Shown here in pieces: positions 2,500-33,728 of a stretch of DNA of 64,000 nucleotides (its first letter is position 1; every line of letters starts with the position of its first letter). The notes below the pieces were generated by a model. The model did no database searches and was not told where the DNA came from. It was given only the letters and a program-made list of their open reading frames with translations. The stretch is from an uncultured Hyphomonas sp. (lineage in GTDB: Bacteria; Pseudomonadota; Alphaproteobacteria; Caulobacterales; Hyphomonadaceae). The stretch spans positions 20,616 to 84,615 of the forward strand of contig CAYGKE010000004.1 of assembly GCA_964350465.1 (NCBI GenBank), read 5' to 3'. The translations under genes and the position numbers were made by a program.

Positions 2500-3336
2500 A
2501 TGGGACGGTTTTCAGGAAAAACGGCCGTGATCACCGGCTCAGGCCGTCGCAAGGGCCTTGGGGAAGCGATTGCCAAACGCCTCGCCGAGGATGGCGCAAA
2601 TATTGTCATCTCGGATATTGGTGCACCGCGTGATGACGCCACTGGCGCGGAACACATTGGCTCCACCGATGAGATGGAAGCCATCGCTGCCGACATGCGC
2701 GCGCTTGGCGTCGATGCTTCGACCTGCGTGTGCGATGTTCGCTCACTCGAAGACGTGCGCGCGCTTGCGAAACATGCTGTCGACACGCATGGCAGTCTCG
2801 ATATCTGGGTCAATAATGCCGGCATCGGCTATATCATGAAGCCGCTGCTGGAGGTGACCGAAGACGACTGGCGCGCTGTGATCGATGTCAATCTGACGGG
2901 TGCCTTTTTCGGCGTGAAGGCGGCTGCCGAAGTTATGACCAAGCAAGGCAAGGGCGGGCGGATTATTAATGTCGCATCGCAGGCGGCCAAGTCGGGCTTC
3001 CCGCATGCGCAAGCCTATACGTCCTCGAAACATGGACTCGTTGGTCTTGTGCGCTCAGCCGCAGTTGAACTGGGCGGCGACAAGATCACGGTCAACAATG
3101 TTTGCCCGAACCATGTCACGACGGGGCTTGGCGCCTGGCAGAATGAGTATTTCGCAAAAGTCGTTGGCGCAGATTCGGTTGATGATTATCTCAAGGCCAT
3201 GGCGGCGCGGATTCCATTGGGACGACCCGGATTGCCTGAGGACACTGCGAATGCGGTGGCCTGGCTATGCTCTGATGAGGCCAACTATATTACTGCTGAG
3301 AGCATGAATGTCTCAGGCGGCGAGGAACCGCACTGA
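2500..3336 (+). CDS. SDR family oxidoreductase
   Basis: TGSGRRKGLG, NNAG, YTSSK catalytic motif. Confidence 0.9.
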   Translation: MGRFSGKTAVITGSGRRKGLGEAIAKRLAEDGANIVISDIGAPRDDATGAEHIGSTDEMEAIAADMRALGVDASTCVCDVRSLEDVRALAKHAVDTHGSLDIWVNNAGIGYIMKPLLEVTEDDWRAVIDVNLTGAFFGVKAAAEVMTKQGKGGRIINVASQAAKSGFPHAQAYTSSKHGLVGLVRSAAVELGGDKITVNNVCPNHVTTGLGAWQNEYFAKVVGADSVDDYLKAMAARIPLGRPGLPEDTANAVAWLCSDEANYITAESMNVSGGEEPH

Positions 3337-4235
3337 TGGTGGTCCCTCCCGATCCTGCCCCGAAGGACTTCACTTGGCCGGGCGGCGCCAAACTTGCGCT
3401 GTCAATTGTCGTGAATGTCGAGGAAGGCGCTGAGAAGCGCGTTGATGAGGGCGACAAGAAGCCTGAACCGGTCGATGAGCTGAAAGCGGTGCCATCTGCG
3501 CCGATCCGCGTATTCTCGAATGAAAGCAACTACCAGTACGGTATCAATCGTGGCGCGCCGCGTGTCTTGAAGCTGCTCGACAAGGCGGGCGTGAACGCAA
3601 CCTGGACCGTCTGCGGGCAAGCGCTTGAAAAGGCACAATGGCTTGCCGATGCCTTGATGGCGCGCGGGGATGAACCGGCCGACCATGGCCATAAATGGGC
3701 CTTCACGGCCTTTATGGATGAAGACCGAGAGACGGCATTTATCGAGAAGAGCGCGGCCAGTATCGAGAAGACCTGCGGGCGTCGTCCGGCCGGTTGGCTG
3801 TCACGCTACCTCTATTCAGAAAATACCCGGCGCATTCTCAAGGCGCAGGGCTACACCTACCATATGGATGATTTTTCCGACGACTTTCCGTATTGGGATC
3901 AGGTCGACATGGGCAACGGAACGCGTGAGCCGATGGTGATCCTGCCTTATGCGATCGATAGCAATGACATGAAATTCTGGATTGATCCGTCTTTCACGAC
4001 GCAGATGTGGATCGACTATGCCAAGCAGACTTTTGATTGGCTGCTCAATGAGTCTGAAACTGAAGGCGCGCGGATGATGAGCCTTGGGCTGCATTTGCGT
4101 ATCATCGGTCGACCCGGCCGTATCGGCGCGCTGGAAGAAGTGCTGGATTATGTGACCAGTAAATCCGGGGTCTGGATCGCCACACGTGAACAAATCGCGC
4201 AGCACTTTGCTGTGCACGTGAAGCCGGAGAGTTGA
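3336..4235 (+). CDS. PuuE/allantoinase-like CE4 (polysaccharide deacetylase fold) hydrolase
   Basis: WPGGAKLALSIVVNVEEG, DHGHKW, GLHLRIIGRPGR. Confidence 0.8.
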   Translation: MVVPPDPAPKDFTWPGGAKLALSIVVNVEEGAEKRVDEGDKKPEPVDELKAVPSAPIRVFSNESNYQYGINRGAPRVLKLLDKAGVNATWTVCGQALEKAQWLADALMARGDEPADHGHKWAFTAFMDEDRETAFIEKSAASIEKTCGRRPAGWLSRYLYSENTRRILKAQGYTYHMDDFSDDFPYWDQVDMGNGTREPMVILPYAIDSNDMKFWIDPSFTTQMWIDYAKQTFDWLLNESETEGARMMSLGLHLRIIGRPGRIGALEEVLDYVTSKSGVWIATREQIAQHFAVHVKPES

Positions 4236-4863: not shown

Positions 4864-5420
4864 CACGGCTATCTCCCTTGTCCCTTGATCAGGTCGATCC
4901 GGAAACACGGTCCATGATCGAGAATGCAGAGAATCTGATGGGGTTTGTCCCGAATGATGCGCTGGTCATGGCCCGCCACCCGGCTTTGCTCAAAGCCATG
5001 TGGGGCTTAGTTGCAGCGATCTATGGACCGGGCGATGTGGACAATGGCTTGAAGCGATTGGTCGGAGAAGCAGCAAGCAAAGCTGCCGGTTGTTTCTATT
5101 GCTCGGCCCATGCCGCTCATGGCGCGCGGGAACATGGTGTCTCAGCTGAGAAGATCGAAGCGGTCTGGTCGTTTGAGGATAGCCCGCTTTTCACTGAGGC
5201 TGAACGTGCAGCTATTGCACTGGCCATGAAGGCGGGTGCCATACCTAATGAAACCGAAGACACGGATTTTGATCGCTTGAAACAGAATTTCAGCGATCGT
5301 CAGATCACAGAAATCGTTGCCGTCATTGCCATGTTTGGCTTCCTCAATCGATGGAACACAACGCTGGGCACAGCGCTGGAGCCGATGCCGATGGCTTCAG
5401 TGGAAGGACTTGCCTCATGA
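4860..5420 (+). CDS. AhpD-like / carboxymuconolactone decarboxylase family protein
   Basis: GCFYCSAH (CxxCxxH), FTEAERAAI, FLNRWN. Confidence 0.8.
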   Translation: MTRLSPLSLDQVDPETRSMIENAENLMGFVPNDALVMARHPALLKAMWGLVAAIYGPGDVDNGLKRLVGEAASKAAGCFYCSAHAAHGAREHGVSAEKIEAVWSFEDSPLFTEAERAAIALAMKAGAIPNETEDTDFDRLKQNFSDRQITEIVAVIAMFGFLNRWNTTLGTALEPMPMASVEGLAS

Positions 5421-6520
5421 TCAGGACGTTACGGCTGCTTGCTATTCTTGGCGGTCTTGGCCTCGCGTCTTGTGTAGCCCCAGCACCGCAGACCCCCGCC
5501 ATTGCACAGACTACGGCAGCGCCCTGGTCGCCGCCGCCGATGGTTAAGCCGGAACCGATCACGCGCCAGCCCTGGCAGGAGGCGGTCGTCAGTGTGCGTG
5601 ATATCGACACGACAGCCCGGTTTTTTCTTGAAGTAGCCGGTTACGAGGTCCGCACACGCGGACCGGTCGATTCCGCCATGCTTGAACATTGGGGGCTGCC
5701 CGCTGAAGCGAGTGCTGAGGCACTCGTTCTTGGTCGTCCTGGGCACGATCAGGGTCAGGTCAGGCTGGTTGAATTCAAAGACGCCGGCCGGCAAGTGCCG
5801 ATGCGTCCGGGCGCGCGTGCTTGGGATACGGGTTGTTACTTCTCACTCATGGTGCGCGCCAAAGATCTTGAGGCACGTTACGAAGAAGCGCTCGCGCTGG
5901 GCTGGTGGACCGAAACGCCCATTGCCGATCTTGAGTTTGGCACGTCAGTCCTGAAGATCGTCATCTTTCGCGGCCCTGACGGATTGCAGGTCCAAGCCTA
6001 TGAGCGTATCAGTCCGGAACTGCCCGAGGCGATTGGGCCATTTGAGCGTATGACGCAGCCTTTCAACGTGATGCAAATGGTGGCTGACCGCGACAAGACG
6101 CGAGAGCTTCTGGTCGGTGTCCTAGGTTTCGATACGTTCTGGTTCGGCCCGCCCTATGTTGATGAAGAGCCGACCTATATGCCAATTGGCATTCCTTATA
6201 ATCTGACGACCAGTGTGCATTATGGCGCCGGCATCTTCTATCCGCAGCCAGGTGAGTTCGGCCGGATGGAAAGTATTGAAATCATGGATCTGGAAGGCCG
6301 TGATTATTCCGACCGCTGCGCCGCGCCGAATTACGGCATCTTGGCGGTCCGTTTCCCTGTCGAGGATCTCGAAACGGCTCGTACCATGATTGAAGCGCGC
6401 GGCTGGCCGATTGCACGGGCAAAGACACAAACTGATATTGCTGGACTGGGCGAGGTTGAGATATTGGGCATCGATACGCCAGACGGTGCGATGGTAGATT
6501 TCTATGCGCTGGTTCCCTGA
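5417..6520 (+). CDS. Tandem-VOC-domain lipoprotein
   Basis: ATG 5417 overlaps the previous stop (ATGA); lipobox LAS-C; repeated VOC strands (SVRDIDTTARFF, GPDGL, TPDGAMVDF). Confidence 0.7.
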   Translation: MIRTLRLLAILGGLGLASCVAPAPQTPAIAQTTAAPWSPPPMVKPEPITRQPWQEAVVSVRDIDTTARFFLEVAGYEVRTRGPVDSAMLEHWGLPAEASAEALVLGRPGHDQGQVRLVEFKDAGRQVPMRPGARAWDTGCYFSLMVRAKDLEARYEEALALGWWTETPIADLEFGTSVLKIVIFRGPDGLQVQAYERISPELPEAIGPFERMTQPFNVMQMVADRDKTRELLVGVLGFDTFWFGPPYVDEEPTYMPIGIPYNLTTSVHYGAGIFYPQPGEFGRMESIEIMDLEGRDYSDRCAAPNYGILAVRFPVEDLETARTMIEARGWPIARAKTQTDIAGLGEVEILGIDTPDGAMVDFYALVP

Positions 6521-6535
6521 GGGCGCGGATTCCTG

Positions 6536-6564
6536 TTGACCTCTGCTTATACGCGCCCTAATTT
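6536..6564 (+). promoter_or_regulatory. Putative sigma70 promoter of the CitE-MaoC operon
   Basis: TTGACC-17 nt-TAATTT; the -10 overlaps operator B. Confidence 0.55.
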
Positions 6565-6576
6565 GTCCGGACAAAT
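6561..6576. promoter_or_regulatory. Operator B copy 1 (ATTTGTCCGGACAAAT, perfect palindrome)
   Basis: Perfect 16-bp palindrome 11 nt upstream of ATG 6588; resembles HutC-subfamily GntR boxes. Confidence 0.75.
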
Positions 6577-6587: not shown

Positions 6588-7406
6588 ATGATACCCACTT
6601 TTCGTTCCTTGCTTTTCGTGCCAGGCGCACGGCCTGATCGTTTTGATAAAGCGGCGTCGGCTGGCGCTGATACGATTATCATTGATCTGGAAGACGCTGT
6701 TCTGCGCGCTGACAAAGTTGAGGCGCGATCAGCTTCGCTCGGTTGGCTGGCGCACCGTGAAAAGACCGTTTGCGCCGGCATACGCATCAATTCGCCGAGA
6801 ACTGCCGAGGGGTGCGCCGATATCGCCGCGCTCGCCATGTCCGGCTGCAGCCCGGACTTTGTCATGGTGCCGAAAGCCGAAACGGGCGTGGATATGGAAA
6901 TTGTCGGCGAAGCCTTGGGCGGCGGTGCCTCACTAATCGCAGTGATCGAAAGTGGACGCGGCTTGCGCCGAGCTTTTGACATTGCCCAGCAATCGGCTGG
7001 CGGTATCCTGTTTGGTGGCGCAGATTTCAGCGCAAGTGTCGGCGCAGACCTGTCAGATTGGGATGCCATGCTGACAGCGCGAGGAACAATCGCAGCAGCC
7101 AGCGGTGCTGCGGGTATCCCCTGCTATGACGTGCCTTACCTGGACATAAAAAATGACGAAGGGCTGCGCGCCAGCACTGCGAAGGCCAAGTCCCTGGGTT
7201 TCTCCGGCCGTACCTGTATTCACCCTGTACAAGTGGAGGGTGTGAACGACGTGTTTTCGCCGACCCCCGCAGAAATTGTAGAGGCCCGCGAAATTATCAA
7301 ATCCCTTAATGACTCAGATGGCGGTGCTGTCCTGCACAAAGGAAAACTGGTCGATCGCCCGATCATTCTCGCGGCGCAAAGAACACTCGCCAAGATCGAC
7401 GAATAG
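6588..7406 (+). CDS. CitE-like acyl-CoA lyase (HpcH/HpaI aldolase-citrate lyase family; citramalyl/malyl-CoA lyase type)
   Basis: RSLLFVPG, IIDLEDAV, GIRIN, VPKAE, IES, FGGADF, CIHP. Confidence 0.85.
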   Translation: MIPTFRSLLFVPGARPDRFDKAASAGADTIIIDLEDAVLRADKVEARSASLGWLAHREKTVCAGIRINSPRTAEGCADIAALAMSGCSPDFVMVPKAETGVDMEIVGEALGGGASLIAVIESGRGLRRAFDIAQQSAGGILFGGADFSASVGADLSDWDAMLTARGTIAAASGAAGIPCYDVPYLDIKNDEGLRASTAKAKSLGFSGRTCIHPVQVEGVNDVFSPTPAEIVEAREIIKSLNDSDGGAVLHKGKLVDRPIILAAQRTLAKIDE

Positions 7407-7419
7407 AGAGGCAATAGAC

Positions 7420-7941
7420 ATGGTCAAAACTGTAAAAGAGGTTGGTCCTAATCGCTACCGCGAGACCTTCGGGCGCTATTTCGAAGATTTCAAAGAAGGC
7501 GACATATACGAACACCGCCCCGGTAAGACGGTAACCGAGTATGACAATCACATGTTCACGTTAATGACGATGAACACACATCCGATGCATTTCGATGCCG
7601 AGTTCGCTGCCGCTAGTGAGTTCAAAAAGAACCTGGTCGTCTCGCCTTACACGCTGGCCTTGCTGATCGGCATGAGCGTCACCGATACATCCCAGAAAGC
7701 TATCGCCAATCTCGGTATGGACGAGGTGAAGTTCACCGCGCCTGTCTTTGCAGGGGATACGATCTATGGCGAGAGTGAAGTTCTCGGCAAACGCGAAAGC
7801 AAGAGCCGGCCAGGTCAAGGCATCGTGACCATCGTGACGCGCGGCTACAATCAGGACGGGGTGATGATCTGCACGTTCAAACGCAATATGCTGATCCCAT
7901 CAGCCGGTAACGCCGTCGAAGACAAGATAGACACATATTAG
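7420..7941 (+). CDS. MaoC-family (R)-specific enoyl-CoA hydratase, RipB/Ich-like
   Basis: GRYFEDF, DNHMFTLMTMNTHPMHFD, PVFAGDTIYGESEVL; ATG 7420 preferred over the track's 7309. Confidence 0.85.
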   Translation: MVKTVKEVGPNRYRETFGRYFEDFKEGDIYEHRPGKTVTEYDNHMFTLMTMNTHPMHFDAEFAAASEFKKNLVVSPYTLALLIGMSVTDTSQKAIANLGMDEVKFTAPVFAGDTIYGESEVLGKRESKSRPGQGIVTIVTRGYNQDGVMICTFKRNMLIPSAGNAVEDKIDTY

Positions 7942-7950
7942 GAGGCCATC

Positions 7951-9150
7951 ATGGCAGATAGTGCATACATGTCGGCAGAGGCCGCAGAAGAAGAAGCGAT
8001 CATGCTGGACGCCATCGACAAATGGCTCGAGCAGAAGGTTAAGCCGGTTGCGATGGAGCTGGAGCACGCCAACGAGTATCCGCATGCGCTGGTCGAGGAT
8101 ATGAAAGAGATGGGTCTGTTTGGCGCTCTGATCGATCCTGAATTCGGCGGCCTTGGCCTGACAGCATCGCTGTACGCCAAAATTGTCACGCGTATCTCCG
8201 AAGAGTGGATGAGCCTCACGGGTATCTTCAACTCGCATCTTATGATGGCGCAGATTGTTCAGCGTTTCGGGACGCAGAAACAGAAAGAACACTGGCTGCC
8301 GAAATTTGCGACCGGTGAAATTCGCGGCGGCCTCGCATTGACCGAACCCAATGCAGGGACCGACCTGCAAGCGCTGACCACCAAGGCAACTCGCGTGGGC
8401 GACAAATATGTTGTCGAAGGCGCCAAGACGTGGATTTCAAACGCGATTGAAGGCCATTGCGTTGCGTTGCTTTGCAAGACCGACACGAAAGCTGAACCGC
8501 GTTACAAAGGCATGTCGATCCTGATCACGCAGACCAAGATTCCTGAGACGCGCGAAGACCTGCCAGGTGTCAAGAATGGCAACAAGCTGGAGAAGCTTGG
8601 CTATAAGGGCATCGATAGCGGCGAGCTGATCTACGATAATTATGAATGCGATGCTGAGCTTTGCCTGGTCGGCGGCGAAGAAGGCAAGGGCTTCTTCATG
8701 GCGACCGGCGGCTTGGAGATTGGCCGGATCAATATTGCTGCGCGCTCGGTTGGGATTGCGCGCCGCGCGCTCAAGGAAAGTGTTGCCTATGCCCAGACGC
8801 GCAAGTCCATGGGCAAGCCGATCTGTGAGCATCAGGCGATCCAACTCAAGCTTGGTGAAATGGGGGCCAAGACCCGCGCCGCTGAACTACTCGTGGCAGA
8901 TGCGGCGCGCGCCTATGACACGGGCGAACGGATCGATATGGAGGCTGGCATGGCGAAGTATTTTGCCTCGGAGACCGCTGTCGAAGTCGCCACTGAAGCG
9001 ATGCGTATTCATGGCGGTTATGGCTACTCAAAGGAATATGTGATCGAGCGGCTCTACCGCGACGCCCCACTGATGTGCATTGGCGAAGGCACGAATGAGA
9101 TGCAGCGCATCATCATCTCGAAACAGCTGGTCAAGCGGAACCCGGTCTGA
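7951..9150 (+). CDS. Acyl-CoA dehydrogenase
   Basis: LTEPNAGTD, GAKTWISN, KLGYKG, RIHGGYGY, IGEGTNEMQR. Confidence 0.92.
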   Translation: MADSAYMSAEAAEEEAIMLDAIDKWLEQKVKPVAMELEHANEYPHALVEDMKEMGLFGALIDPEFGGLGLTASLYAKIVTRISEEWMSLTGIFNSHLMMAQIVQRFGTQKQKEHWLPKFATGEIRGGLALTEPNAGTDLQALTTKATRVGDKYVVEGAKTWISNAIEGHCVALLCKTDTKAEPRYKGMSILITQTKIPETREDLPGVKNGNKLEKLGYKGIDSGELIYDNYECDAELCLVGGEEGKGFFMATGGLEIGRINIAARSVGIARRALKESVAYAQTRKSMGKPICEHQAIQLKLGEMGAKTRAAELLVADAARAYDTGERIDMEAGMAKYFASETAVEVATEAMRIHGGYGYSKEYVIERLYRDAPLMCIGEGTNEMQRIIISKQLVKRNPV

Positions 9151-10292
9151 TGTCTGACCTGCCTCTCAAGGGCATCCGTATCCTGTCAGTGGAGCAGTAT
9201 GGCGCCGGACCGTATGGCACCATGCTGCTCGCTGATCTCGGTGCCGAGGTGATCAAGATCGAGGACCCGTCGCGCGGCGGCGATGTCTCGCGCTCCGTTG
9301 GACCATACATGCTGGGGGAGGGCGATAGTGAATTCTTCCAGACATTCTCCTATGGAAAAAAATCGGTCGCGCTTGATCTCAAGTCAGCGGAAGGTCGCGC
9401 GAGATTTGAGGCACTGGTGAAAACCGCAGATGCCGTTTCCAATAACTTACGCGGCGACCAACCGGGCAAGCTCGGCCTGACTTATGAAGCGCTGAAAGCG
9501 ATCAATCCGAAAATTGTCTGCGCGCATCTGTCGGCCTATGGCCGCAAGTCTGAACGCGCTGCCTGGCCGGGTTATGATTATCTGATGCAGGCGGAAGCTG
9601 GCTTCATGTCGGTGACAGGCGAGCCGGATGGACCGCCTGTTCGCTTTGGCCTGTCCATGGTCGACTTTCATACCGGCAGCCAGATGGCGACGGCATTGCT
9701 GGCCGGTATTCTTGGCGCGAGCCGGACCGGCGAAGGCTGCGATCTCGACGTCTGCCTGTTTGATACAGCGCTGCACCAGCTGTCTTATCCCGGCACCTGG
9801 TATCTCAATCAGGGCCATATTACCGGCCGCCTACCGCGCGGAAGTCATCCGGCGATCACGCCAAGCCAGACGGTCAAAACCAAGGATGGTTGGGGTCTGC
9901 TAATGTGCCAGACACCGAAATTCTGGTTGCTCTGGTGCGAGCTCGCAGGGGCGCAGCACCTCAATGAAGATAAGCGCTTTTCATCGATCCCGAAACGGCG
10001 TGAGAACCTCACAGCCCTCAGTGATGCGGTCGATGCAGTGATGATGGCGAAGACCACTGAAGAGTGGATGCAGGTGCTTGGCGGGCATGTGCCCTTCGCG
10101 CCAGTATTGGATGTCGCTGAGGCACTAGATAATCCGTATGTCGCAAGCGTTGAGATGACCTCGCGCGTCGATCACCCGAATACCGATACCGGCTTGCGCG
10201 CACTGTCTTCCCCTTTCCGCGTCAATGGCGATCGGCCAAAGCTCACACGCGCACCAAAGATGGGTGAACATTCAGATGAGTTGCTAAAATGA
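9150..10292 (+). CDS. Class III CoA-transferase (CaiB/BaiF)
   Basis: LADLGAEVIKIE, GKKSVALDLK, catalytic Asp in MVDFHTG. Confidence 0.9.
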   Translation: MSDLPLKGIRILSVEQYGAGPYGTMLLADLGAEVIKIEDPSRGGDVSRSVGPYMLGEGDSEFFQTFSYGKKSVALDLKSAEGRARFEALVKTADAVSNNLRGDQPGKLGLTYEALKAINPKIVCAHLSAYGRKSERAAWPGYDYLMQAEAGFMSVTGEPDGPPVRFGLSMVDFHTGSQMATALLAGILGASRTGEGCDLDVCLFDTALHQLSYPGTWYLNQGHITGRLPRGSHPAITPSQTVKTKDGWGLLMCQTPKFWLLWCELAGAQHLNEDKRFSSIPKRRENLTALSDAVDAVMMAKTTEEWMQVLGGHVPFAPVLDVAEALDNPYVASVEMTSRVDHPNTDTGLRALSSPFRVNGDRPKLTRAPKMGEHSDELLK

Positions 10293-11458
10293 AGCTGGAC
10301 GGCGTCAAAGTCCTCGATCTTTCGGCTTTCCTGCCGGGGCCGCACATGACGATGATGATGGCTGACCATGGTGCCGACGTGATCATGATCGAACCAGCTA
10401 ACGGCGTTGGCGAGCCAACCCGCCAGATTGGCGAGAAAACCGCGGACGGCGTTTCGGTGTGGTTTCGCAATATTGCCCGCGGCAAGCGTAGCTTGAAACT
10501 GAACCTCAAGGATGAAGACGGCCGTGCGCTCTTCTATCGTCTGGCGGATCAGGCAGATGTCGTGCTCGAGGCGTTCAGGCCAGGCGTCGTCAAGCGTCTT
10601 GGCGTTGATTATGAGACTGTATCAGCGCGCAATCCACGTATCGTTTACTGCTCGATTTCGGCCTTTGGCCAGGACAGTTCGCTGGCCCACAAACCCTCAC
10701 ACGATACGGGCGTGCAAGCGTTGGCGGGGCTGATCGACCTCAATCGCGGGCTAGAGGATGATAAGCCGGCCATGCCGAGCATCCCTTTTGCTGATGCCGG
10801 GGCCTCCCTCATGGCGCTCTCGGCAGTTTTGATGGCGCTCTACCGGCGCGAGAAAACCGGTCGAGGCGACTATATCGACATGGCGATGTATGACGCTGCG
10901 ATTGCCTGGACCCCGAACGTATTGGGACCAGTCTTCGCCAGGGACGAACATCGTGAGCCAAAACAAATGCGCAGTTTTGGTGGCTCCGCTCTGACCAATC
11001 TTTACGAAACTTCGGATGGAGAGTTCATCGCATTCAGTGGGCCAGAACTGAAATTCGCAACCAATCTTCTAAGCGCGCTTGGCCGCCCTGATCTCATAGA
11101 GATCGTCAAGCTTGAGCCAGGCCCTGATCAGGTCCCGTTGCGCGCGTATTTGACAGCCACTTTCAAGTCCAAGCCTCTAGCGCATTGGCAAGCGTTTCTG
11201 GAGCCGCTTGACTGCGCCTGGTCGTGGGTACGTAGCCTGAAGGATGCTTTCGATGATCCGTTCACGGCAGAACGCGGCATGGTTTTTACCGATACTCAGG
11301 GCCATCGCCATATCGGCCCACCGATCAAGTTCAGAGATGAACCACCAAAGCCGGACACTCGCGTCCCTGGCTTCGGGGAAGACAGCCAGGCCATTGCTGA
11401 CGAGGCCGGACTTACCCCCGAAGCCATTGCCGGCCTCAAAGCCAAAGGAGTGATCTGA
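10289..11458 (+). CDS. Class III CoA-transferase (CaiB/BaiF), second paralogue
   Basis: GVKVLDLS, DHGADVIMIE, EAFRPGV, FADAGAS. Confidence 0.9.
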   Translation: MKLDGVKVLDLSAFLPGPHMTMMMADHGADVIMIEPANGVGEPTRQIGEKTADGVSVWFRNIARGKRSLKLNLKDEDGRALFYRLADQADVVLEAFRPGVVKRLGVDYETVSARNPRIVYCSISAFGQDSSLAHKPSHDTGVQALAGLIDLNRGLEDDKPAMPSIPFADAGASLMALSAVLMALYRREKTGRGDYIDMAMYDAAIAWTPNVLGPVFARDEHREPKQMRSFGGSALTNLYETSDGEFIAFSGPELKFATNLLSALGRPDLIEIVKLEPGPDQVPLRAYLTATFKSKPLAHWQAFLEPLDCAWSWVRSLKDAFDDPFTAERGMVFTDTQGHRHIGPPIKFRDEPPKPDTRVPGFGEDSQAIADEAGLTPEAIAGLKAKGVI

Positions 11459-11910
11459 TGCCAATCTATCCAAAGGACATGTTTGCCGCGACGCGAGCAC
11501 ACGAGGGTATTTGGGAAGGGACCTACACGCACATTGACGCTGACGCGCAGATCGAAGATCAGCACCGCACCCGGGTTGTCTGCGAGTTTCCTGACGATGG
11601 CGGCGATGTCTTCTATCGCCAACACATTCACTTCATGTGGGATGATGGCCGCACGCGCGATGACATGTTCGAAGGCATCCCGCGAGATGACAAGCTCTGG
11701 TATGACACACCGGCTTTCAAGGGACCGAGCTGGGAAACCCATGATGGTCTGATCATGCTCAATCTGCAACGTAAGGATGAGCCTGGGTCAAACTTCTTTG
11801 AAGTGATCATGATGGGTGATACCGGCAAACATCGCGCACGGACCTGGCACTGGTTCAGGGATGGCAAGCTGTATCGCCGTACACTTTGTAACGAGACGAG
11901 AGTTGGCTAA
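11458..11910 (+). CDS. DUF3598-like beta-barrel protein
   Basis: HEGIWEGTY start, all-beta pattern, RARTWHWF...RTLCNETR end; translationally coupled. Confidence 0.55.
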   Translation: MPIYPKDMFAATRAHEGIWEGTYTHIDADAQIEDQHRTRVVCEFPDDGGDVFYRQHIHFMWDDGRTRDDMFEGIPRDDKLWYDTPAFKGPSWETHDGLIMLNLQRKDEPGSNFFEVIMMGDTGKHRARTWHWFRDGKLYRRTLCNETRVG

Positions 11911-12285
11911 CTATCCAGCATGCTGATCAAGTAGGATCTGGTTTCCATCCGGATCAACAATCATGCAGGAGCCGGGCCCGGACCCGGCCTCGTCGACTTC
12001 GCTGACCGGCGTAATTCCGCTGGCTTTCAGACGCTTTTGAATGTCGCGCACATCTTCGAATGAATCCAGCGGCTGTGCGTCAGCGTCCCAGCCCGGATTG
12101 AAAGTCAGGATGTTCTTCTCAAACATGCCTTGGAACAGGCCAATCGTCGCTGTGGGTGATTTCAGGATGGCCCAGTTGTGAGCGGTCTGGTCATGATACA
12201 TCGAAAAGCCCAATGTCTCGTAGAACTTGATCGAGGCAGTCAGGTCTTTCACAGCAAGGCTGACGGAAAAATTTCCAAGCGACAT
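11911..12285 (-). CDS. VOC family protein
   Basis: SLAVKDLTASIKFYETLGF; DPDGNQILLDQH. Confidence 0.85.
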   Translation of the reverse strand: MSLGNFSVSLAVKDLTASIKFYETLGFSMYHDQTAHNWAILKSPTATIGLFQGMFEKNILTFNPGWDADAQPLDSFEDVRDIQKRLKASGITPVSEVDEAGSGPGSCMIVDPDGNQILLDQHAG

Positions 12286-12302
12286 GGGCAGGCTCCTGTT
12301 TT

Positions 12303-13019
12303 CTAACCGCGGGTGCGGTCAAGGCGCATTTCATACGCGAAACGGCCAGCCGGGTGAAGGCTCTCTGAAAACAGGATGATTTTACCCTTGCTGTCGCGGT
12401 AACGACGGACCGTTCTGAGTGCGGGAAAGCCTTGATCGGTGCCTAGCCGTTTGGCTTGGCTGGCATTGAGTGCCACGGCTTCCATACGCTGCACGACGCG
12501 ATCTACGCCGACGCCATGCTTATCCTCGATCCACTCTGATATCGAGCCGGACAAACCCTCGATGGTCTCGCGGTCAGGGGAAAGATCACTTCGAATATAG
12601 ACGGCCGTGATAGCCTGAGGTGCCTGGTCCTTAACCCGTCTGAATCCGATCAGCTGCTTGTAAGCGCCGGTTAGGCCAAGCCGGTCCAGTGTTTCATCGT
12701 CAGCATCTTGCATGACCGTAACTTCGAACTGGGAGTCTCGGGCATATTGCAGGATCGAGTCGAAGTCGCCGATCGGTTGGGCGAAGGCCGGTGCAGATGC
12801 TGCGGAGACAACTGTTCCTGCGCCCCGGCGGCGCTCGATCCTGCCTTCTTCGACAAGGATCCTAAGTGCATCACGCGCGGTATGCCGAGACACCGAATAG
12901 GTCTCGCAAATCTCCATTTCCGTCGGCAGCGCGTCGCCCGGTTTCAGCTTGCCATTCACAATCTGAGCCCGGAACTTGTCAGCCATTTCCCGGTAGCGTG
13001 GTTGTTTCGGCTTAGCCAT
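12303..13019 (-). CDS. GntR family regulator (HutC subfamily, UTRA domain) #1
   Basis: PRY..MAD, LPTEMEI, VSRHTARDAL wHTH; C-terminal UTRA. Confidence 0.9.
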   Translation of the reverse strand: MAKPKQPRYREMADKFRAQIVNGKLKPGDALPTEMEICETYSVSRHTARDALRILVEEGRIERRRGAGTVVSAASAPAFAQPIGDFDSILQYARDSQFEVTVMQDADDETLDRLGLTGAYKQLIGFRRVKDQAPQAITAVYIRSDLSPDRETIEGLSGSISEWIEDKHGVGVDRVVQRMEAVALNASQAKRLGTDQGFPALRTVRRYRDSKGKIILFSESLHPAGRFAYEMRLDRTRG

Positions 13020-14284
13020 TACATTGCTTTCCTGATTGCCGCCCAGTCGCTGGCAAGATGATCTCGGTGCGCTGGATCGGCGATAGAGATAAGTGACTTG
13101 GCGCGCTGGTCCAGCGATTTGTGAGCTAGGCTGGCGATCCCGTGCTCTGTGACCACAGTGTCGATATCGGCTCGCGTAATGGAGGTGGCATCTGGTGCCA
13201 GGCGAGGGACGATGCGGCTGATGCTCCCGCCTTTTGCGGTTGAGGTGAGCGCGATAATCCCTCGCCCCTGTGGTGAAGCTGCGGCGCCGCGCAGGAAATC
13301 GACCAGACCACCCGTGCCCGAGACCTGTCGCCCGCCGATGAATTCTGCGTTGACCTGGCCGAAAAGGTCGATCTCGATACAGGAATTGATCGCTTTGAGT
13401 TTGGGAATGGCGGCCAGTGTTGTGATCGAATGCGTATAGCTGACGGGCTGAAAGCGAATGCGGCGATCATGCGCGGCGCGCGCGTACAGCGTGTCAGTTC
13501 CGATCGCGACCCCGGTTGTAATTGCGCTTGGATAGTCAGCGATGGCCCCCGCATCGAGTAGGCCCAGTATAGGGTCAGAGATCATGCCAGCATGGATGCG
13601 CAGGTCGCGGCGATCACGCAGCGCTTCAAGGACCGCTTGCTGAACATTGCCAAGCCCGAATTGCAACGTGTCGCCATCGTCAATCAGTGATGCGATGTGT
13701 CTGCCAATCGAGGCGAAGGCAGGCGGCAAGCTTTTAGGTGGAACCTGAACCAGCGGCGTATCGTCCTCAGCAACATGTGTAAAGCGCGATAGTGGGACAT
13801 GTGGTGCATCTTGCGGCGTTTTCAGATGCGGGTTGATCACGGCCATACAGCGCACATCCTGTCGCTCCAGAACGGCACCGGCAAAATCAGACGAGACACC
13901 AAGGCTGACACGGTTGCCAGCGTCAGGCGGGCTGACCATGATGATTGCGCCATGCAGGGGCGTTGTCTCCAGCCATGTCCAGCTTTGCGTATAACTAAGC
14001 GGCAGAAAGTCGGTTTTGCCAGCTTCGAAACTGCCGCGTAGTGCTGGCGAGAGAAAAATGCTTTCTGCCCTCGCATCCTCGTGCAGGTTTGCCCAATCCG
14101 TCTGGTTGACACCTGGGATCCATATCCCGAGAAAAGTCACACCCGCAGCAAGCTGAGGCACTTGCCTGAACGCGTCCGCGACGGCCAACGGCTCACCGCT
14201 ACAGCCGCCAACATATAGCCTTGCTTTGCCTGGCAGGCTCAAACGGAACTCTTTTAGCGTGGATAAGAGCGGCGGATGCGTCAT
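13019..14284 (-). CDS. Acetyl-CoA hydrolase/transferase family (4-hydroxybutyrate CoA-transferase/RipA-like)
   Basis: DGDTLQFGLG, EIDLFGQVNAE, GTGGLVDF, VVTEHG. Confidence 0.88.
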   Translation of the reverse strand: MTHPPLLSTLKEFRLSLPGKARLYVGGCSGEPLAVADAFRQVPQLAAGVTFLGIWIPGVNQTDWANLHEDARAESIFLSPALRGSFEAGKTDFLPLSYTQSWTWLETTPLHGAIIMVSPPDAGNRVSLGVSSDFAGAVLERQDVRCMAVINPHLKTPQDAPHVPLSRFTHVAEDDTPLVQVPPKSLPPAFASIGRHIASLIDDGDTLQFGLGNVQQAVLEALRDRRDLRIHAGMISDPILGLLDAGAIADYPSAITTGVAIGTDTLYARAAHDRRIRFQPVSYTHSITTLAAIPKLKAINSCIEIDLFGQVNAEFIGGRQVSGTGGLVDFLRGAAASPQGRGIIALTSTAKGGSISRIVPRLAPDATSITRADIDTVVTEHGIASLAHKSLDQRAKSLISIADPAHRDHLASDWAAIRKAM

Positions 14285-14346
14285 TTATTCCTGTCTTGGG
14301 TTAGTTTTCGGGTTCACTCAAGCTTGTAACTTATGCTAGCACAATA

Positions 14347-14362
14347 AAATGTCCGGACAAAT
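14347..14362. promoter_or_regulatory. Operator B copy 2 (AAATGTCCGGACAAAT)
   Basis: 14/16 match to copy 1, in the divergent gap between the CoA-transferase/GntR#1 operon and the prpD operon; next to a TAAAAT -10-like hexamer. Confidence 0.7.
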
Positions 14363-15650
14363 GCAATCACAAACGATCTTGCAATCCCTGGCCAAGCATT
14401 TGGCACGGCCTGTGGATATTGCGACGGTCGACCGTGCGCGATTGCATCTGACTGACTGGATCGGGTGTGCGGTTGCCGGAGCAAAAGAGGTGCCGGGCGA
14501 GGTGCTGCGGCGCACCAAGGGGCAGGGCCGAAGCGGGGATGCCTTTTACTGGGGCGGTTTAGGCAATATTCTTGAAATGGATGATGTTGACAAACGCGCC
14601 ATCCTGCATCCCGGACCAGCTATTATTCCTGCCGTTTTGGCGCTTGCCGAAGGTCACAATGGCAACGCACTGTTGACTGCCATCGTTCGCGGTTATGAGG
14701 CGACGATTAGGCTCGGCCGCGCGGTCGGGCTGAGCCATTACGCTTTTTGGCATAGTACAGGCACGTGCGGGTCGATCGGAGCTGCCGCCGCATCTGCCAG
14801 CCTTCTTGAACTCGATGAAGAACAGACTGCTCAGGCCATGGCGCTCGCCCTGAGCCAGGCCGCAGGTCTATGGCAAACCCGGCACGAGACCTTCAGTATG
14901 GGCAAGCAATTGCACACGGCCCATGCGGCGCGGGCAGGGCTTGAAGCGGCTGAACTGGCAGCTGCGAGTTTCAAGGGACCATTGTCGATCCTTGAGGGCG
15001 AGCAGGGCTTTTTTGCCGCCATGTGCCAGGGCGCAAATCCACACACTGTGTTGGCTGAGTATGAAAGCGACTGGCTGATCCATGATGTCAGCTTCAAACC
15101 GTGGCCCGCTTGTCGGCATGCCCACCCAACCATTGATGCGGCGCTTGAACTTGCTGGCCAGATTGAAGACGCAGGCAGTGACAAGATCGACGTGCGCACC
15201 TATGGGGATGCCTTGAAATTCTGTGACCGGCCTAACCCTCAAACACCGCATCAGGCGAAGTTTTCATTACAGCATGTAGTTGCCATTTGTCTGACGCGAG
15301 GCGCGCCGCAGCTTGAAGACTTTGAAATGGCGACGGTCCGCGATCCTGAGATTACCGATATCCGGGCCCGCGTGAGTGTCAGTGTCGGCGAACCCTATGC
15401 CTCGGCCTATCCCGATCGTTACGGTGCCGAAGTCTCGGCAGAGGGTAAAATTGCCAGAGTTCCGGATGCTTTGGGTGATCCGGAGAACCCCGTCACCGCT
15501 GAGCAAATTTATACCAAGGCTACAACACTTATGCAGGTTGGTGGTTTAGACGATGGCCAAGCCAAAGCGCTGATTGCGCAGGTCAATAACCTTGGCCCAA
15601 ACGACAGCGCCGCGAATCTGTTGAAGGCTGTGCGGGAGGCGCTGACATGA
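14361..15650 (+). CDS. MmgE/PrpD family protein #1
   Basis: LEMDDV...HPG, KQLHTAHAA, SFKPWPACRHAHP; start 14361 (or 14349). Confidence 0.88.
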   Translation: MQSQTILQSLAKHLARPVDIATVDRARLHLTDWIGCAVAGAKEVPGEVLRRTKGQGRSGDAFYWGGLGNILEMDDVDKRAILHPGPAIIPAVLALAEGHNGNALLTAIVRGYEATIRLGRAVGLSHYAFWHSTGTCGSIGAAAASASLLELDEEQTAQAMALALSQAAGLWQTRHETFSMGKQLHTAHAARAGLEAAELAAASFKGPLSILEGEQGFFAAMCQGANPHTVLAEYESDWLIHDVSFKPWPACRHAHPTIDAALELAGQIEDAGSDKIDVRTYGDALKFCDRPNPQTPHQAKFSLQHVVAICLTRGAPQLEDFEMATVRDPEITDIRARVSVSVGEPYASAYPDRYGAEVSAEGKIARVPDALGDPENPVTAEQIYTKATTLMQVGGLDDGQAKALIAQVNNLGPNDSAANLLKAVREALT

Positions 15651-17020
15651 CGGATATGGTATCTGCCTTTGTTCACCATGGTCTGACGGCGCGCTATGAA
15701 GCCATGCCCGAGGCGGCGCGTATAGCTGCTCAAACCTATCTACTGGATTCACTTGGCGTCGGGATTGCCGGGGCCGTCGTTCCGTTGACGCATAATGTAC
15801 GTGCGTCGGCGGCTGAGTGGGCCGGTTCCGGCGACGCCTGGGTCTGGGGTCAGGGCAGCTTTCAGACAACACCGGCTAATGCTGCTTTTATCAATGGCTT
15901 TCAGATTCATTGTCAGGAGTTTGACTGCGTTCACGAGCCCGCTGTTGTGCATCCAATGGCGACGATTCTTGCAGCCATCATGGCCGAAGTGGACGGTAGC
16001 AATGCGAAGGTCAGCGGCAAGGAGCTCGCAATGGCGCTAGTCGTTGCGGCAGACCTCGCCACTGGTATCGGTGTGTCAGTAACCAGCCCGATCAAATTCT
16101 TCCGCCCTGCCAATGCCGGCATCTTTGGTGCGACACTCGGTATCTCGCGGTTGCGTAGCTTCACTGCAGAGCAGACAAAAGACGCACTCGGCTATGCGCT
16201 GGCTTTCTGTTCCGGCACCATGCAGGCGCATGTCGAAGGCAAACCTGCTCTACCGATCCAGATTGGAAATGCCGCACGCGGCGCGATCATGGCGTGCGAT
16301 CTTGCCCGCAATGGCATACCGGGTCCGCATGACAGTCTGGAAGGTCCGTTTGGTTATTTCAACTTGTTTGAGGATGAATCTAATCCCACAGAAGTAATCG
16401 CGTCACTCGGCAAGACCTGGCGAATTGCCGAGGTCAGCCACAAACCCTTCCCCACCGGCCGAGCCGCGCAGGGCGGTATCGTCCTGATGCAAAAACTCCG
16501 CGAGCAGGGCACGCGCGCTGATGATATCCAAAAGATAACGCTGACGGCACCGCCAATTATCAAACGTCTGGTTGGACGCCCTCTGAAAGCTGGTATGGGC
16601 GTCAATTATGCCCGGCTCTGTTTTCAGTATTCCGGTGCCGTAGCGCTGATAAGCGGCAATGTCGGCCTGGATGACTTCAGTGAAGCGGCACTGCGCGACC
16701 CGGATGTTCACGCGCTTGGCCAGAAGATCGAAGTGATTGATGATGGTTCAACAAACCCCGCTGCCTTTAAGCCGCAAGTTGCGGTTGCGACGCTTAAAGA
16801 CGGCCGCTTGGTCGAGGCGCGGATTGATGCGCTCTATGGGTCGCCATCTGATCCGATGACGCATGAGGCGCATCTCACCAAGTTCCGTGCCTGTGTCGAT
16901 TTCGGGTTTGGCGCCCCAAGATCAGACATCGCTGCAAGACTCATTGCGCTCACCGAAACACTCGAAACCCTTGAGGATGCGCGCATCCTCTCCCGACTAT
17001 CTGCTGGACAGGAGGCCTGA
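15647..17020 (+). CDS. MmgE/PrpD family protein #2
   Basis: QEFDCVHEPAVVHP, LEGPFGYF, HKPFPTGR, GSPSDPM. Confidence 0.88.
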   Translation: MTDMVSAFVHHGLTARYEAMPEAARIAAQTYLLDSLGVGIAGAVVPLTHNVRASAAEWAGSGDAWVWGQGSFQTTPANAAFINGFQIHCQEFDCVHEPAVVHPMATILAAIMAEVDGSNAKVSGKELAMALVVAADLATGIGVSVTSPIKFFRPANAGIFGATLGISRLRSFTAEQTKDALGYALAFCSGTMQAHVEGKPALPIQIGNAARGAIMACDLARNGIPGPHDSLEGPFGYFNLFEDESNPTEVIASLGKTWRIAEVSHKPFPTGRAAQGGIVLMQKLREQGTRADDIQKITLTAPPIIKRLVGRPLKAGMGVNYARLCFQYSGAVALISGNVGLDDFSEAALRDPDVHALGQKIEVIDDGSTNPAAFKPQVAVATLKDGRLVEARIDALYGSPSDPMTHEAHLTKFRACVDFGFGAPRSDIAARLIALTETLETLEDARILSRLSAGQEA

Positions 17021-17022
17021 CC

Positions 17023-18417
17023 TTGGCTGCTCAACACAAGACCTATTTTAATTCCGTCGATTGGAATGCCCTGCAAAAGGATCACCCCATTGGTGACGAT
17101 TTCCTGGCCTTTGCCAAGAAGAGCAAAGACGAGATCCGCACGCATCAGGAACGGTTATTTGCGCGTTGCGTGGACCGGGCCTGGAAAGTCCCGTTCTATC
17201 AGAGACTCTGGGGCGAAGCCGGGGTCGAGCCGGGTGACATCAAGGGTCTGGAGACACTGCCTCAGCTTCCGGTATTCGACAAATCAGACATCATGGCGTC
17301 AATCGCCCGCACACCGCCGCTTGGCGATTTCTCCGGGTTCGAAAGCCATAAAGACGGCCGCCCACCGGTCATCATGCATACGACATCCGGCACGACTGGC
17401 ACACCGCAAGTGCTGCTGTTTGGGGCGAAATCGCGTGAAGCACAGAACCTGCTGCTCGGGCGTCTTTACCGCTTTCAGGGTCTGCGCCCGGATGATGTCG
17501 TCCACTCGGTCTATGGTCATGGCATGATCAATGGTGGTCACTATGTCCGCGAAAGCGTCATTCACTGGACCAGCGCGATTTTCATGTCGGCGGGCACAGG
17601 TGTCGAAACGCGCTCTGTTCGTCAGGTCGAGCTGATGCGAGACTTTGGGGCGACCGTGATTGTCGGTTTTGCCGACTATATCAAGAAGCTCGCCAAGGTT
17701 GCTGCCGAACAAGGCATCGATCCCGTCAAGGATCTCAAAATCCGCATGGTATCCGGTCATCTTGGCCGCGAGGACAAGCAAGGCCTGTCGCAGTCCTGGG
17801 GTGGGGTCGAATGCTATGACTGGTACGGCGTTGGCGATACCGGCTGTATTGCCGGTGAAGGCCCGGACCGGGACGGTCTCTATGTCATGGAGGACGCGCA
17901 ATATCTTGAGGTTTGCGGCATTGAGGACGGCCTTCCCGTTGCCGAGGGTGAGTCAGGCGACATGGTCTGCACCTGTCTCTACAAGGATGACATTTATCCG
18001 ATCATTCGCTTCAACACACACGATGTGACCAAGGTGAAGACTGGTAACTCATCACTGGGTCTGAACTTCAAGCGCATTGAAGGCTTTCTTGGTCGTTCAG
18101 ATAATATGGTGAAGATCCGAGGCATCAATATCTTCCCGCAGGCCATGGGCCCACTGCTTGAGGAGGTCGACAGCTTTGCTGGCGAGTTTATCTGCAAGGC
18201 TGAGCGTGATGCTTCAGGCCGCGACGAGTTCATCGTCTGCGCCGAAGTGAACGGCCCGCGCGGTGACAGTGAGGTCAGCAAATTCAAGGCGTTTCTAAAA
18301 CAGAAGATCGGCATCGATTGCGGCGTTGAACTCTCAGGTCCGGGCGAGCTTTCCGCTCTGACCCAGACTGAAGTGCGCCAGAAACCCATCCGCCTGATCG
18401 ATGAGCGTTTTAAGTGA
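17023..18417 (+). CDS. Phenylacetate-CoA ligase-like (PaaK-type) adenylate-forming enzyme
   Basis: TTSGTTGTP P-loop, DWYGVGDTG, GRSDNMVKIRGINIFP; TTG start after GGAGG. Confidence 0.82.
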   Translation: MAAQHKTYFNSVDWNALQKDHPIGDDFLAFAKKSKDEIRTHQERLFARCVDRAWKVPFYQRLWGEAGVEPGDIKGLETLPQLPVFDKSDIMASIARTPPLGDFSGFESHKDGRPPVIMHTTSGTTGTPQVLLFGAKSREAQNLLLGRLYRFQGLRPDDVVHSVYGHGMINGGHYVRESVIHWTSAIFMSAGTGVETRSVRQVELMRDFGATVIVGFADYIKKLAKVAAEQGIDPVKDLKIRMVSGHLGREDKQGLSQSWGGVECYDWYGVGDTGCIAGEGPDRDGLYVMEDAQYLEVCGIEDGLPVAEGESGDMVCTCLYKDDIYPIIRFNTHDVTKVKTGNSSLGLNFKRIEGFLGRSDNMVKIRGINIFPQAMGPLLEEVDSFAGEFICKAERDASGRDEFIVCAEVNGPRGDSEVSKFKAFLKQKIGIDCGVELSGPGELSALTQTEVRQKPIRLIDERFK

Positions 18418-19691
18418 GCCCGCAAGAACGGTTTGCCTTTTACAAAGACCGGATTGCGCGCTTCAATCCGGGTCTGAATGCTTTCATCCATTTGCGTCTT
18501 GATGAGGCGAAAGCGGAGGCCGAAGCAGCAGAGCGCCGCGCCGAAGCTGGTGCACTTCTCTCGCCAATTGATGGCTGGTGCATTGCGGTAAAAGCAAATA
18601 TCGCGGTCGCGGGCCTGCCGCATCATGCAGGGATTGGCGCCTATAAGGATGACATTGCGGCGGCGGATGCCGAGGTTGTCAGACGCCTAAAGGTCGCTGG
18701 CGCGATCATCCTCGGCATCATCAACATGCATGAAGGCGCGCTTGGTGCCACGACAGACAATGAAGTCTTTGGTCGGACGCAAAACCCCTGGCGCGAGGGT
18801 GTAACGCCCGGCGGGTCATCAGGTGGATCGGGTTGCGCGGTTGCTGCTGGTCTATGCGATGCGGCGCTCGGCTCTGATACAATGGGCTCGGTCAGAATTC
18901 CATCTGCCTATTGCGGCATCCAGGGGCACAAGCCAACAACCGGTCTTGTGCCGGATGATGGCGTTTTGGCTTTGTCCCACACGCTCGACCATGTCGGCCC
19001 GCATGCGCGGCAGGTCAGTGGTCTTGCGCAGATTCTGGAAGTGCTTGCGGGAAAGTCGATGAGTATCCCCATCCCCGATCTTGATCAGGCGAGTTTTGGG
19101 GTCTGGCACGGAACCGGCCAAATCGAATGCGCTCAGACCGTAAAGGATGGGTTCCGCAACGCGCTAGAAACACTCGGCGACAGTTTACAGATCAAGATTG
19201 AGCCACCCGCCTATGCCTACGGAAAATCTCGCCGGGCGGGCCTCCTGATCTCAGAAATCGAGGGCCACGCAATCCATGTCGAGCGCCTAAAAACGGATCC
19301 AGAGGGGTTCAGTCAGACGTTCCGAAAACTCCTTGAATGGGGCGCGGCGCAATCCGCCCAAAAGGTCGATGCCGCCTATGCGCATATCCGCAATATAAGG
19401 GAGGCCGCCGGAGCGATCTTCGAGAAAGTCGATTTCGTCCTGGCCCCAACTGCGCCGCAGCTCGCTTTCGCATTCGACGAGGAAGTGCCCGCCAATCAAG
19501 CTGACTTTACAGCATGGGCCGATTTTGCGGCGCTGCCTGCGACAGCAATCTATACGGGGCTTAGCGAAACCGGTTTACCATGTTCAATGCAGGTCATCGG
19601 GCCAGAAGGCAGAGATGCCGAAACACTGGCCGTGGCGGCTGCCATGGAAGCACGGATCGGTCTGCCACCAATGCCGCCAGGGTTTGACTAG
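18414..19691 (+). CDS. Amidase-signature family amidase
   Basis: AVKANI, PGGSSGGSG, GSDTMGSVRIP (Lys-Ser-Ser triad). Confidence 0.9.
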   Translation: MSPQERFAFYKDRIARFNPGLNAFIHLRLDEAKAEAEAAERRAEAGALLSPIDGWCIAVKANIAVAGLPHHAGIGAYKDDIAAADAEVVRRLKVAGAIILGIINMHEGALGATTDNEVFGRTQNPWREGVTPGGSSGGSGCAVAAGLCDAALGSDTMGSVRIPSAYCGIQGHKPTTGLVPDDGVLALSHTLDHVGPHARQVSGLAQILEVLAGKSMSIPIPDLDQASFGVWHGTGQIECAQTVKDGFRNALETLGDSLQIKIEPPAYAYGKSRRAGLLISEIEGHAIHVERLKTDPEGFSQTFRKLLEWGAAQSAQKVDAAYAHIRNIREAAGAIFEKVDFVLAPTAPQLAFAFDEEVPANQADFTAWADFAALPATAIYTGLSETGLPCSMQVIGPEGRDAETLAVAAAMEARIGLPPMPPGFD

Positions 19692-27533: not shown

Positions 27534-27537
27534 TTTG

Positions 27538-33725: not shown

Positions 33726-33728
33726 GCC

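Follow-up and report, generated by a model that had tools for sequence, protein, structure and literature searches.

Two types of gene cluster for itaconate have been described, the Yersinia ripABC cluster and the Pseudomonas/Cupriavidus type (PMC12290011, PMC9875883). The five genes of the latter provide Ict, a family-III CoA-transferase; Mcd, an acyl-CoA dehydrogenase (ACAD) specific for methylsuccinyl-C4-CoA; Ich; Ccl; and Msi, a methylsuccinate isomerase of the PrpD family (PMC12290011). The P. aeruginosa cluster (PA0878-PA0883) additionally has a 127-amino-acid (aa) VOC lactonase of the PA0880 type, associated with 2-hydroxyparaconate (PMC9875883), and the known cluster already processes several C5 diacids (PMC12290011, PMC9875883). 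We examined a related locus in an uncultured Hyphomonas sp., within a 64,000-nt stretch of contig CAYGKE010000004.1 (assembly GCA_964350465.1), hereafter the window. Here, a block of genes at positions 6588-19691 joins enzymes of the Ict, Mcd, Ich and Ccl kind to a PaaK-like adenylate-forming ligase and an amidase (Table 1). We propose that this block is probably the lower, CoA-dependent part of an as yet uncharacterised pathway in which a ring amide or imide is converted to a branched diacid.

Like the Pseudomonas/Cupriavidus cluster, the block keeps a family-III transferase, an ACAD, a MaoC-type hydratase, a CitE-type lyase and MmgE/PrpD proteins together. We judged orthology against stand-in loci, chosen by gene order and NCBIfam scores to take the place of the proteins characterised in P. 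aeruginosa, C. necator and Y. pestis: L051 (Pseudomonas sp.) and L035 (Azospirillum) represent the five-gene Pseudomonas type, and L033 the three-gene Rip type. Among 151 genomes from the genus to which L051 belongs, we found just two genes resembling Mcd and no cluster like that of P. aeruginosa. In genome-wide comparisons, the ACAD, the first family-III transferase (transferase a) and the MaoC protein were reciprocal best hits of stand-in cluster genes. Identity to the L051 and L035 proteins was 60-62% for the ACAD (next paralogue in the genome, 38%), 50-54% for transferase a (31%) and 58-59% for the MaoC (47%, a partial gene on contig C106), and the MaoC was 58-64% identical to the hydratases of Yersinia-type and Pseudomonas-type clusters alike. 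Asp172 of transferase a, the position expected for the catalytic Asp of its family, was invariant in eight sequences. A first-pass annotation made from the sequence had described the ACAD and the family-III transferases as mirroring the P. aeruginosa cluster, and for the ACAD and transferase a these comparisons bear that out. All of the genes it named are present in the open reading frame (ORF) listing and in Pfam and NCBIfam scans, and the nearby CoA ligase it mentioned is the PaaK-like enzyme, encoded just past the module it had delimited (6588-17020). Judged by homology, the reactions of the core are most likely those of Ict, Mcd, Ich and Ccl, with a diacid resembling methylsuccinate as substrate.

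The orthology of the CitE lyase was ambiguous: it reached 39-40% identity to both cluster types, and a second CitE in the genome (contig C106) was nearly as close (37%). Its closest homologues came from Henriciella and Hyphomonas, and its best match among solved structures was Y. pestis RipC (3QLL, 177 bits, with other CitE proteins at about 110). The annotation had likened the CitE and MaoC proteins to RipC and RipB/Ich, and these were indeed the nearest NCBIfam models, although the scores of 220.8 bits (NF038242 RipC_Ccl) and 230.3 bits (NF038241 RipB_Ich) lay under the cut-offs of 375 and 340. When we calibrated these models, L033 passed both (410.7 and 373), while L051 failed both (170.6 and 214.1), as the window does, and none of 14 control genomes held a RipC match above the cut-off. 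Given that a Pseudomonas-type locus also fails, we conclude that the cut-offs define the Yersinia type only and that scores below them are not evidence against Ich or Ccl function. A tree of 81 lyases placed the CitE, with good support, in a superclade that also holds the Rip-type, Azospirillum-type and Erythrobacter-type lyases, away from the group of L051 and so on the RipC side, unlike that Pseudomonas-type stand-in. In the hydratase tree, the MaoC grouped with its counterparts from clusters that contain an ACAD (SH-aLRT 93), beside the Rip clade. The block departs from Y. pestis ripABC in that its Rip scores are far below the equivalog cut-offs, the three corresponding genes are not in a single operon, and its transferase is not a RipA orthologue. 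As a separate observation, four loci (L015, L016, L020 and L070) of Hyphomonas metagenome-assembled genomes (MAGs) carried a paralogous CitE (61-64% identity), accompanied in three of the four by an ACAD (74-75%); the interval separating CitE from ACAD, of roughly 500 nt, held no recognisable match to MaoC. One MAG (L015/L019) carried the paralogous pair plus the full cluster.

We found that the genes of the block are tied together by their arrangement and by a shared operator. Start and stop codons overlap along both plus-strand operons, and the ligase and amidase genes overlap by 4 nt and are translationally coupled. A GntR regulator adjoins the module in every one of the related loci, L051 among them (33% identity), in contrast to the LysR regulator of C. 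necator. The HutC-type GntR regulator of the window is the presumed binder of a 10-bp motif, operator B (TGTCCGGACA), which had seven matches in the window with at most one mismatch, compared with 1.85 expected, a number that none of 100 shuffles reached. Exact copies stand ahead of the CitE gene and over the PrpD1 start codon, in a divergent promoter region, and one of the copies with a single mismatch lies in the promoter of a TonB-dependent receptor. The same site, as AATTTGTCCGGACAAAT, was found 25-35 nt before CitE in all of the Hyphomonadaceae loci checked and in L027 and L024, and before MaoC in L051, and operator B was also found in Erythrobacter ani. Its position on the PrpD1 start was kept in relatives and in the distant loci L098, L099, L102, L104 and L107. 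Given the overlapping start and stop codons, a gene order shared by 12 or more loci from Hyphomonadaceae and marine MAGs, and the enrichment of the operator, the arrangement is not due to chance. The block, ligase and amidase included, is one regulon, presumably under HutC/GntR control. A scan for sigma-70 promoters and terminators gave a yield not above chance.

Alternatively, two functionally unrelated operons could lie side by side and share a regulator family, one a C5-diacid module and the other a separate amide-utilisation module. The two blocks are separate transcription units, the island holds two operators, and the gene order is shuffled among families, all of which would fit such a neighbourhood. 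However, operator B stands ahead of the CoA module and of the PrpD-ligase-amidase operon alike, in the window and in the distant loci L104 and L107, and the co-occurrence of the two survives rearrangement across approximately 11 families, so we regard this possibility as highly improbable.

The conservation of the ligase and amidase extends well outside the immediate relatives. The block from an upstream methyltransferase to the ligase was syntenic in Hyphomonadaceae at 55-92% identity, the ligase itself being 78-90% identical across the family. In Erythrobacter ani and a marine MAG, the core comprised a two-domain VOC protein, two receptors, a membrane protein, CitE, MaoC, the ACAD and both family-III enzymes, together with GntR, PrpD1, PrpD2, the ligase and the amidase. 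Of 300 alphaproteobacterial genomes sampled, about 13 had a ligase orthologue (at least 45% identity). The amidase adjoined the ligase in all but one of 13 distant regions that we fetched, and it co-occurred with the ligase in every related locus that extended that far. These distant regions usually held PrpD1, PrpD2, the CoA module and PuuE-like, isochorismatase-like and crotonase genes, in shuffled order. One alphaproteobacterial genome, with two replicons (G228; L098 and L099), had two PrpD1-PrpD2-ligase-amidase operons with ligases 74% identical, one copy lying with the CoA module and the other with isochorismatase-like, PuuE-like and crotonase genes.

Several parts of the block differ from those of the described clusters. 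Relative to the Pseudomonas/Cupriavidus cluster, the window adds a second family-III enzyme, a 4-hydroxybutyrate-type transferase, the PaaK-like ligase, the amidase and a beta-barrel protein; it has no TRAP transporter; and of its two PrpD proteins, neither agrees with Msi. The second family-III enzyme (transferase b) was 26% identical to transferase a and retained the Asp aligned with Asp172. Its best solved relatives were a 'formyl-CoA transferase' entry, a CaiB/BaiF protein, YfdE and SUGCT, with racemases scoring lower, and it was kept in the loci of Hyphomonadaceae, Erythrobacter and other families; by these resemblances it may be a transferase or a racemase-like enzyme.

Two likenesses drawn by the first-pass annotation were not supported. 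It had named a RipA-family transferase as the counterpart of Yersinia RipA, but this enzyme was only 31-32% identical to the RipA of L033 and matched solved 4-hydroxybutyrate CoA-transferases (229 bits) better than Y. pestis RipA (156 bits), and it was missing from the related loci L013, L018 and L027. It had also counted the small VOC protein as a mirror of the P. aeruginosa cluster. Since this 124-aa protein had no homologue in approximately 90 related loci (E 1e-3), it is an accessory gene of this genome, outside the conserved module. Elsewhere in the genome, on small contigs, we observed a transferase 59% identical to the RipA of the bona fide Rip-type cluster L033 (contig C202:867-2303) and a second pair of MaoC and CitE genes, with 47% and 37% identity to the reference clusters (contig C106:19-1219). 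The pair and the transferase could form a separate set that serves free itaconate.

The two PrpD proteins had likewise been taken to mirror the P. aeruginosa cluster, in which this family supplies the methylsuccinate isomerase, a comparison that their identities to the stand-in PrpD proteins (30-32% for PrpD1 and 27-28% for PrpD2) and altered active sites do not favour. When we aligned PrpD1 to iminodisuccinate epimerase (2HP0/2HP3, about 30% identity), E76, H87, Y131, H135, K186 and K250 corresponded to D88, H99, Y145, H150, K198 and K266 of 2HP3, so that PrpD1 retains the His/Tyr two-base pair and five of six carboxylate ligands, while N73 takes the place of the first His (H85). This pattern was kept in 19 sequences, the sole exception being one with Tyr at H135. 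The residues of Msi are His88, Glu91, His102, Tyr148, His152, Lys202 and Lys266 (PMC12290011), and the residue numbers of PrpD2 coincide with the published positions (Tyr148, His152 and Lys202). PrpD2 retains only H88, E91, H102 and K266; in all 17 sequences compared, the positions of the His and Lys ligands are occupied by F152 and L202, and in 14 of these that of the Tyr by P148. Neither protein shows the Msi pattern, with Asn for His88 in PrpD1 and Pro148, Phe152 and Leu202 in PrpD2, although the comparison is imperfect in that the stand-in PrpD proteins also lack the Tyr. PrpD2 looks like a collinear relative without the second base and one carboxylate-binding pair, and its substrate may have a single free carboxylate. 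Its best solved relative was cis-aconitate decarboxylase (129 bits). We considered that activity for PrpD2 and dropped it, as the equivalents of His159, Lys207 and the active-site Tyr of the decarboxylase are missing.

A second regulon, of oxidoreductases and amide/imide hydrolases, surrounds the first. Its motif, operator A (AAGATATATCATT / AAGGTATATCATT), occurs at four sites in the window, and the second GntR regulator is its likely partner. Both regulons meet at one outer-membrane receptor, in whose promoter an operator A site follows the operator B-like site. The genes under operator A include PuuE-like, isochorismatase-like and nitrilase-like genes, and both an isochorismatase-like gene and the amidase-signature amidase lie near the PuuE-like genes. 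PuuE-family enzymes include cyclic imidases (PMC11424739), and the succession of SDR, cyclic imidase and amidase is documented in fungal nicotinate catabolism (PMC9304392). As in the PuuE-family imidase systems (BpIH and the P. putida imidase) and in the HxnW-HxnM-HxnN enzymes of Aspergillus nidulans (SDR, cyclic imidase and amidase-signature amidase), the island combines an SDR, PuuE-like genes and an amidase-signature amidase, and the logic of ring amide to half-amide to diacid would be the same. These systems differ from the window in that their diacid enters central metabolism directly, whereas here it would pass through a dedicated CoA module, and in that most of the window's hydrolases lie outside 6588-17020 and under a different operator.

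Under our proposal, the PuuE-type imidase-like, isochorismatase-like and nitrilase-like proteins of the second regulon would yield a branched diacid with a C4 backbone, similar to methylsuccinate, or its half-amide. The PaaK-like ligase and the amidase would process the half-amide, PrpD1, with its His/Tyr two-base site, would equilibrate stereoisomers, and PrpD2, in which a carboxylate-binding pair is missing, may have as its substrate a form with one free carboxylate. The Ict-like transferase a, aided by transferase b and the 4-hydroxybutyrate-type transferase, would then make the CoA ester, which the Mcd-like ACAD would oxidise to an enoyl-CoA resembling mesaconyl-C4-CoA. Hydration by the Ich-like MaoC would give an ester resembling citramalyl-CoA, and the CitE-like lyase would cleave this to acetyl-CoA and pyruvate, or to close homologues.

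It is also possible that the block is an ordinary, somewhat expanded cluster for itaconate, methylsuccinate and mesaconate, drawing on free C5-dicarboxylates from the environment, with the extra transferases and PrpD proteins widening its range, as the first-pass annotation saw it. In its favour, the four core enzymes are nearest to Ict, Mcd, Ich and Ccl, the published cluster already handles several C5 diacids (PMC12290011, PMC9875883), and operator B also occurs at the plain five-gene cluster L051. We nevertheless consider it unlikely. Across families, the module is tied to the pair of ligase and amidase and in many cases also to hydrolases of the PuuE-like and isochorismatase-like kinds. 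The island holds no TRAP or TTT dicarboxylate transporter, only the TonB-dependent receptor and one membrane protein; in addition, neither PrpD fits Msi, and the second Rip-like set lies elsewhere. Given the near-constant ligase-amidase pair, the imidase-type hydrolases in many genomes and these features of the island, we favour intracellular formation of the diacid, with an amide or imide as its source, over import of free itaconate. The annotation had suggested several substituted dicarboxylates rather than itaconate alone; a range beyond itaconate remains reasonable, but the linkage to ligase, amidase and imidase-like genes points instead to a diacid derived from an amide or imide. In the literature, we found no report of itaconate in Hyphomonas.

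The 150-aa protein encoded between the plus-strand transferases and the small VOC gene raises a further alternative. Its Pfam match was DUF3598_N, below the cut-off (E 0.0013), and an AlphaFold2 model from nine orthologues (pLDDT 94.3) gave a ten-stranded barrel. Barrels of this fold bind hydrophobic ligands, tetrapyrroles included. Foldseek matched the model to BFA1, the DUF3598 structure 2O62, the CpcS-like 3BDR, CpeS (4TQ2) and nitrobindin, with TM scores of about 0.72-0.76. Among the related loci searched, the protein was confined to the Hyphomonadaceae type.

The fold of this coupled protein is that of the bilin lyases CpcS and CpeS and of heme-binding nitrobindin, and the block might be the lower pathway for alkyl-substituted maleimides or succinimides, such as methyl-ethyl-maleimide, methyl-vinyl-maleimide and hematinic acid, which arise around algae when chlorophyll, heme or bilins are broken down by oxidation. 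The island includes a TonB-dependent receptor and several genes of the imidase-like and amidase-like kinds, the first gene of the upstream operon encodes a HapK-like protein, of a kind that occurs in a tripyrrole gene cluster, monopyrrole products appear to be documented in nature (PMC7318184), and the hosts are marine Hyphomonadaceae and Erythrobacter. This support is circumstantial, however: ligands of many kinds are bound by barrels of this fold, and the Erythrobacter-type cluster lacks the barrel protein. The receptor fits only generic siderophore/heme/B12 models, all below cut-offs, the 62% identity of the ACAD to methylsuccinate-type clusters favours a small methyl-branched substrate, and we found no report of bacterial maleimide catabolism in the literature. 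We therefore regard a maleimide or succinimide source as distinctly unlikely, and give the same slight credence to its corollary that the CoA module would handle maleyl- or succinyl-CoA esters with methyl and ethyl or carboxyethyl substituents. In a variant with a similarly slim chance of being correct, the ligase and amidase would convert a half-amide directly to a regiospecific acyl-CoA, PrpD2 would isomerise a mono-carboxylate (amide), and the barrel protein would handle a pyrrole-derived ligand.

The proposal of an amide- or imide-fed pathway has to be weighed against several points that count against it. The hydrolase genes stand under operator A, and their ties to the module are proximity, the shared receptor promoter and co-occurrence. 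In an Erythrobacter-type locus, no imidase-like gene was seen within 20 kb. Orthology was judged on stand-ins rather than on characterised proteins, no reference is more than about 40% identical to the CitE, which groups apart from the lyase of the Pseudomonas sp. locus, and identities of 50-62% are insufficient to fix substrate specificity.

To our knowledge, there is no well-documented natural source of methylsuccinate for the published itaconate/methylsuccinate pathway. If our proposal is correct, the joining of Mcd-, Ich- and Ccl-type enzymes to amide or imide cleavage would be a natural feeder route, from a nitrogen-containing ring compound to a branched diacid. Roles would also follow for two uncharacterised MmgE/PrpD subfamilies, for the PaaK-like ligase and amidase pair, and for the DUF3598-like barrel protein. 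Because the cluster is widespread in marine Alphaproteobacteria, its substrate is probably an abundant marine metabolite.

Table 1. Genes and operator sites of the locus, in window coordinates.
Feature	Position	Strand	Support or context
CitE/HpcH-family CoA-ester lyase (Ccl/RipC-like)	6588-7406	+	PF03328, E 2e-31
MaoC-type (R)-hydratase (Ich/RipB-like)	7420-7941	+	NF038241 RipB_Ich 230.3 bits; start most likely ATG at 7420 (AGAGG site ahead), rather than 7309
ACAD, Mcd-like	7951-9150	+	Three ACAD Pfam domains; GEGT motif with catalytic Glu
Family-III CoA-transferase a (Ict-like)	9150-10292	+	CoA_transf_3, PF02515, E 3e-107
Family-III CoA-transferase b, divergent paralogue	10289-11458	+	CoA_transf_3
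150-aa beta-barrel protein, DUF3598-like, otherwise unannotated ORF	11458-11910	+	
124-aa VOC/glyoxalase-fold protein	11911-12285	-	PF00903, E 1e-9
HutC-type GntR/UTRA regulator	12303-13019	-	GntR and UTRA domains
4-hydroxybutyrate-CoA-transferase-family enzyme ('RipA-like')	13019-14284	-	AcetylCoA_hyd_C, PF13336
MmgE/PrpD protein 1 (PrpD1)	14349-15650	+	Epimerase-type active site by alignment
MmgE/PrpD protein 2 (PrpD2)	15647-17020	+	Remodelled active site by alignment
PaaK-like adenylate-forming ligase	17023-18417	+	PaaK models 154 bits, below cut-offs
Amidase-signature amidase	18414-19691	+	PF01425, E 8.5e-88
Operator B, exact	6564-6573		15 nt upstream of CitE start
Operator B, exact	14350-14359		Overlaps PrpD1 start codon
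Operator B, one mismatch	21878		
Operator B, one mismatch	29736-29745		TonB-dependent receptor promoter
Operator A	2135-2147		HapK-like, SDR, PuuE-like, VOC and CMD genes; divergent methyltransferase
Operator A	24173-24185		Membrane protein, FAD oxidase, aldehyde dehydrogenase and crotonase genes
Operator A	29210-29222		Isochorismatase-like, two PuuE-like and nitrilase-like genes
Operator A	29766-29778		TonB-dependent receptor promoter, 20 nt downstream of operator B-like site
Second GntR regulator	24213-25010		
TonB-dependent receptor	29735-32002		
SDR and PuuE-like genes, adjacent	2500-4235		
PuuE-like gene	3336-4235		218.7 bits, cut-off 424.6
PuuE-like gene	26631-27668		
PuuE-like gene	27538-28482		
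121-aa ORF	450-815	-	Coupled to methyltransferase
SAM-methyltransferase	818-2056	-	N-terminal extension of ~200 aa
Two-domain VOC protein	5351-6520		Likely start ~5567
Aldehyde dehydrogenase, ACAD and 3-hydroxyisobutyrate-dehydrogenase-like genes	32226-35759		Directly past receptor

Some neighbouring genes were of interest in their own right. The two-domain VOC protein gave weak Pfam hits and no match to a solved structure, and Atlas returned only 'VOC family'. It was absent from the closest Hyphomonadaceae loci, while a homologue of 37-38% identity stood beside the receptors in the Erythrobacter-type cluster and one of 32% inside a Hirschia cluster. Directly past the receptor, the aldehyde dehydrogenase, which resembles methylmalonate-semialdehyde dehydrogenase, the ACAD and the 3-hydroxyisobutyrate-dehydrogenase-like gene are of a type found in valine or thymine catabolism, and they appear to lie outside both regulons. 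The SAM-methyltransferase and its coupled 121-aa ORF were conserved with the cluster in Hyphomonadaceae at 66-92% identity, and a methyltransferase is an unexpected member of a catabolic island.

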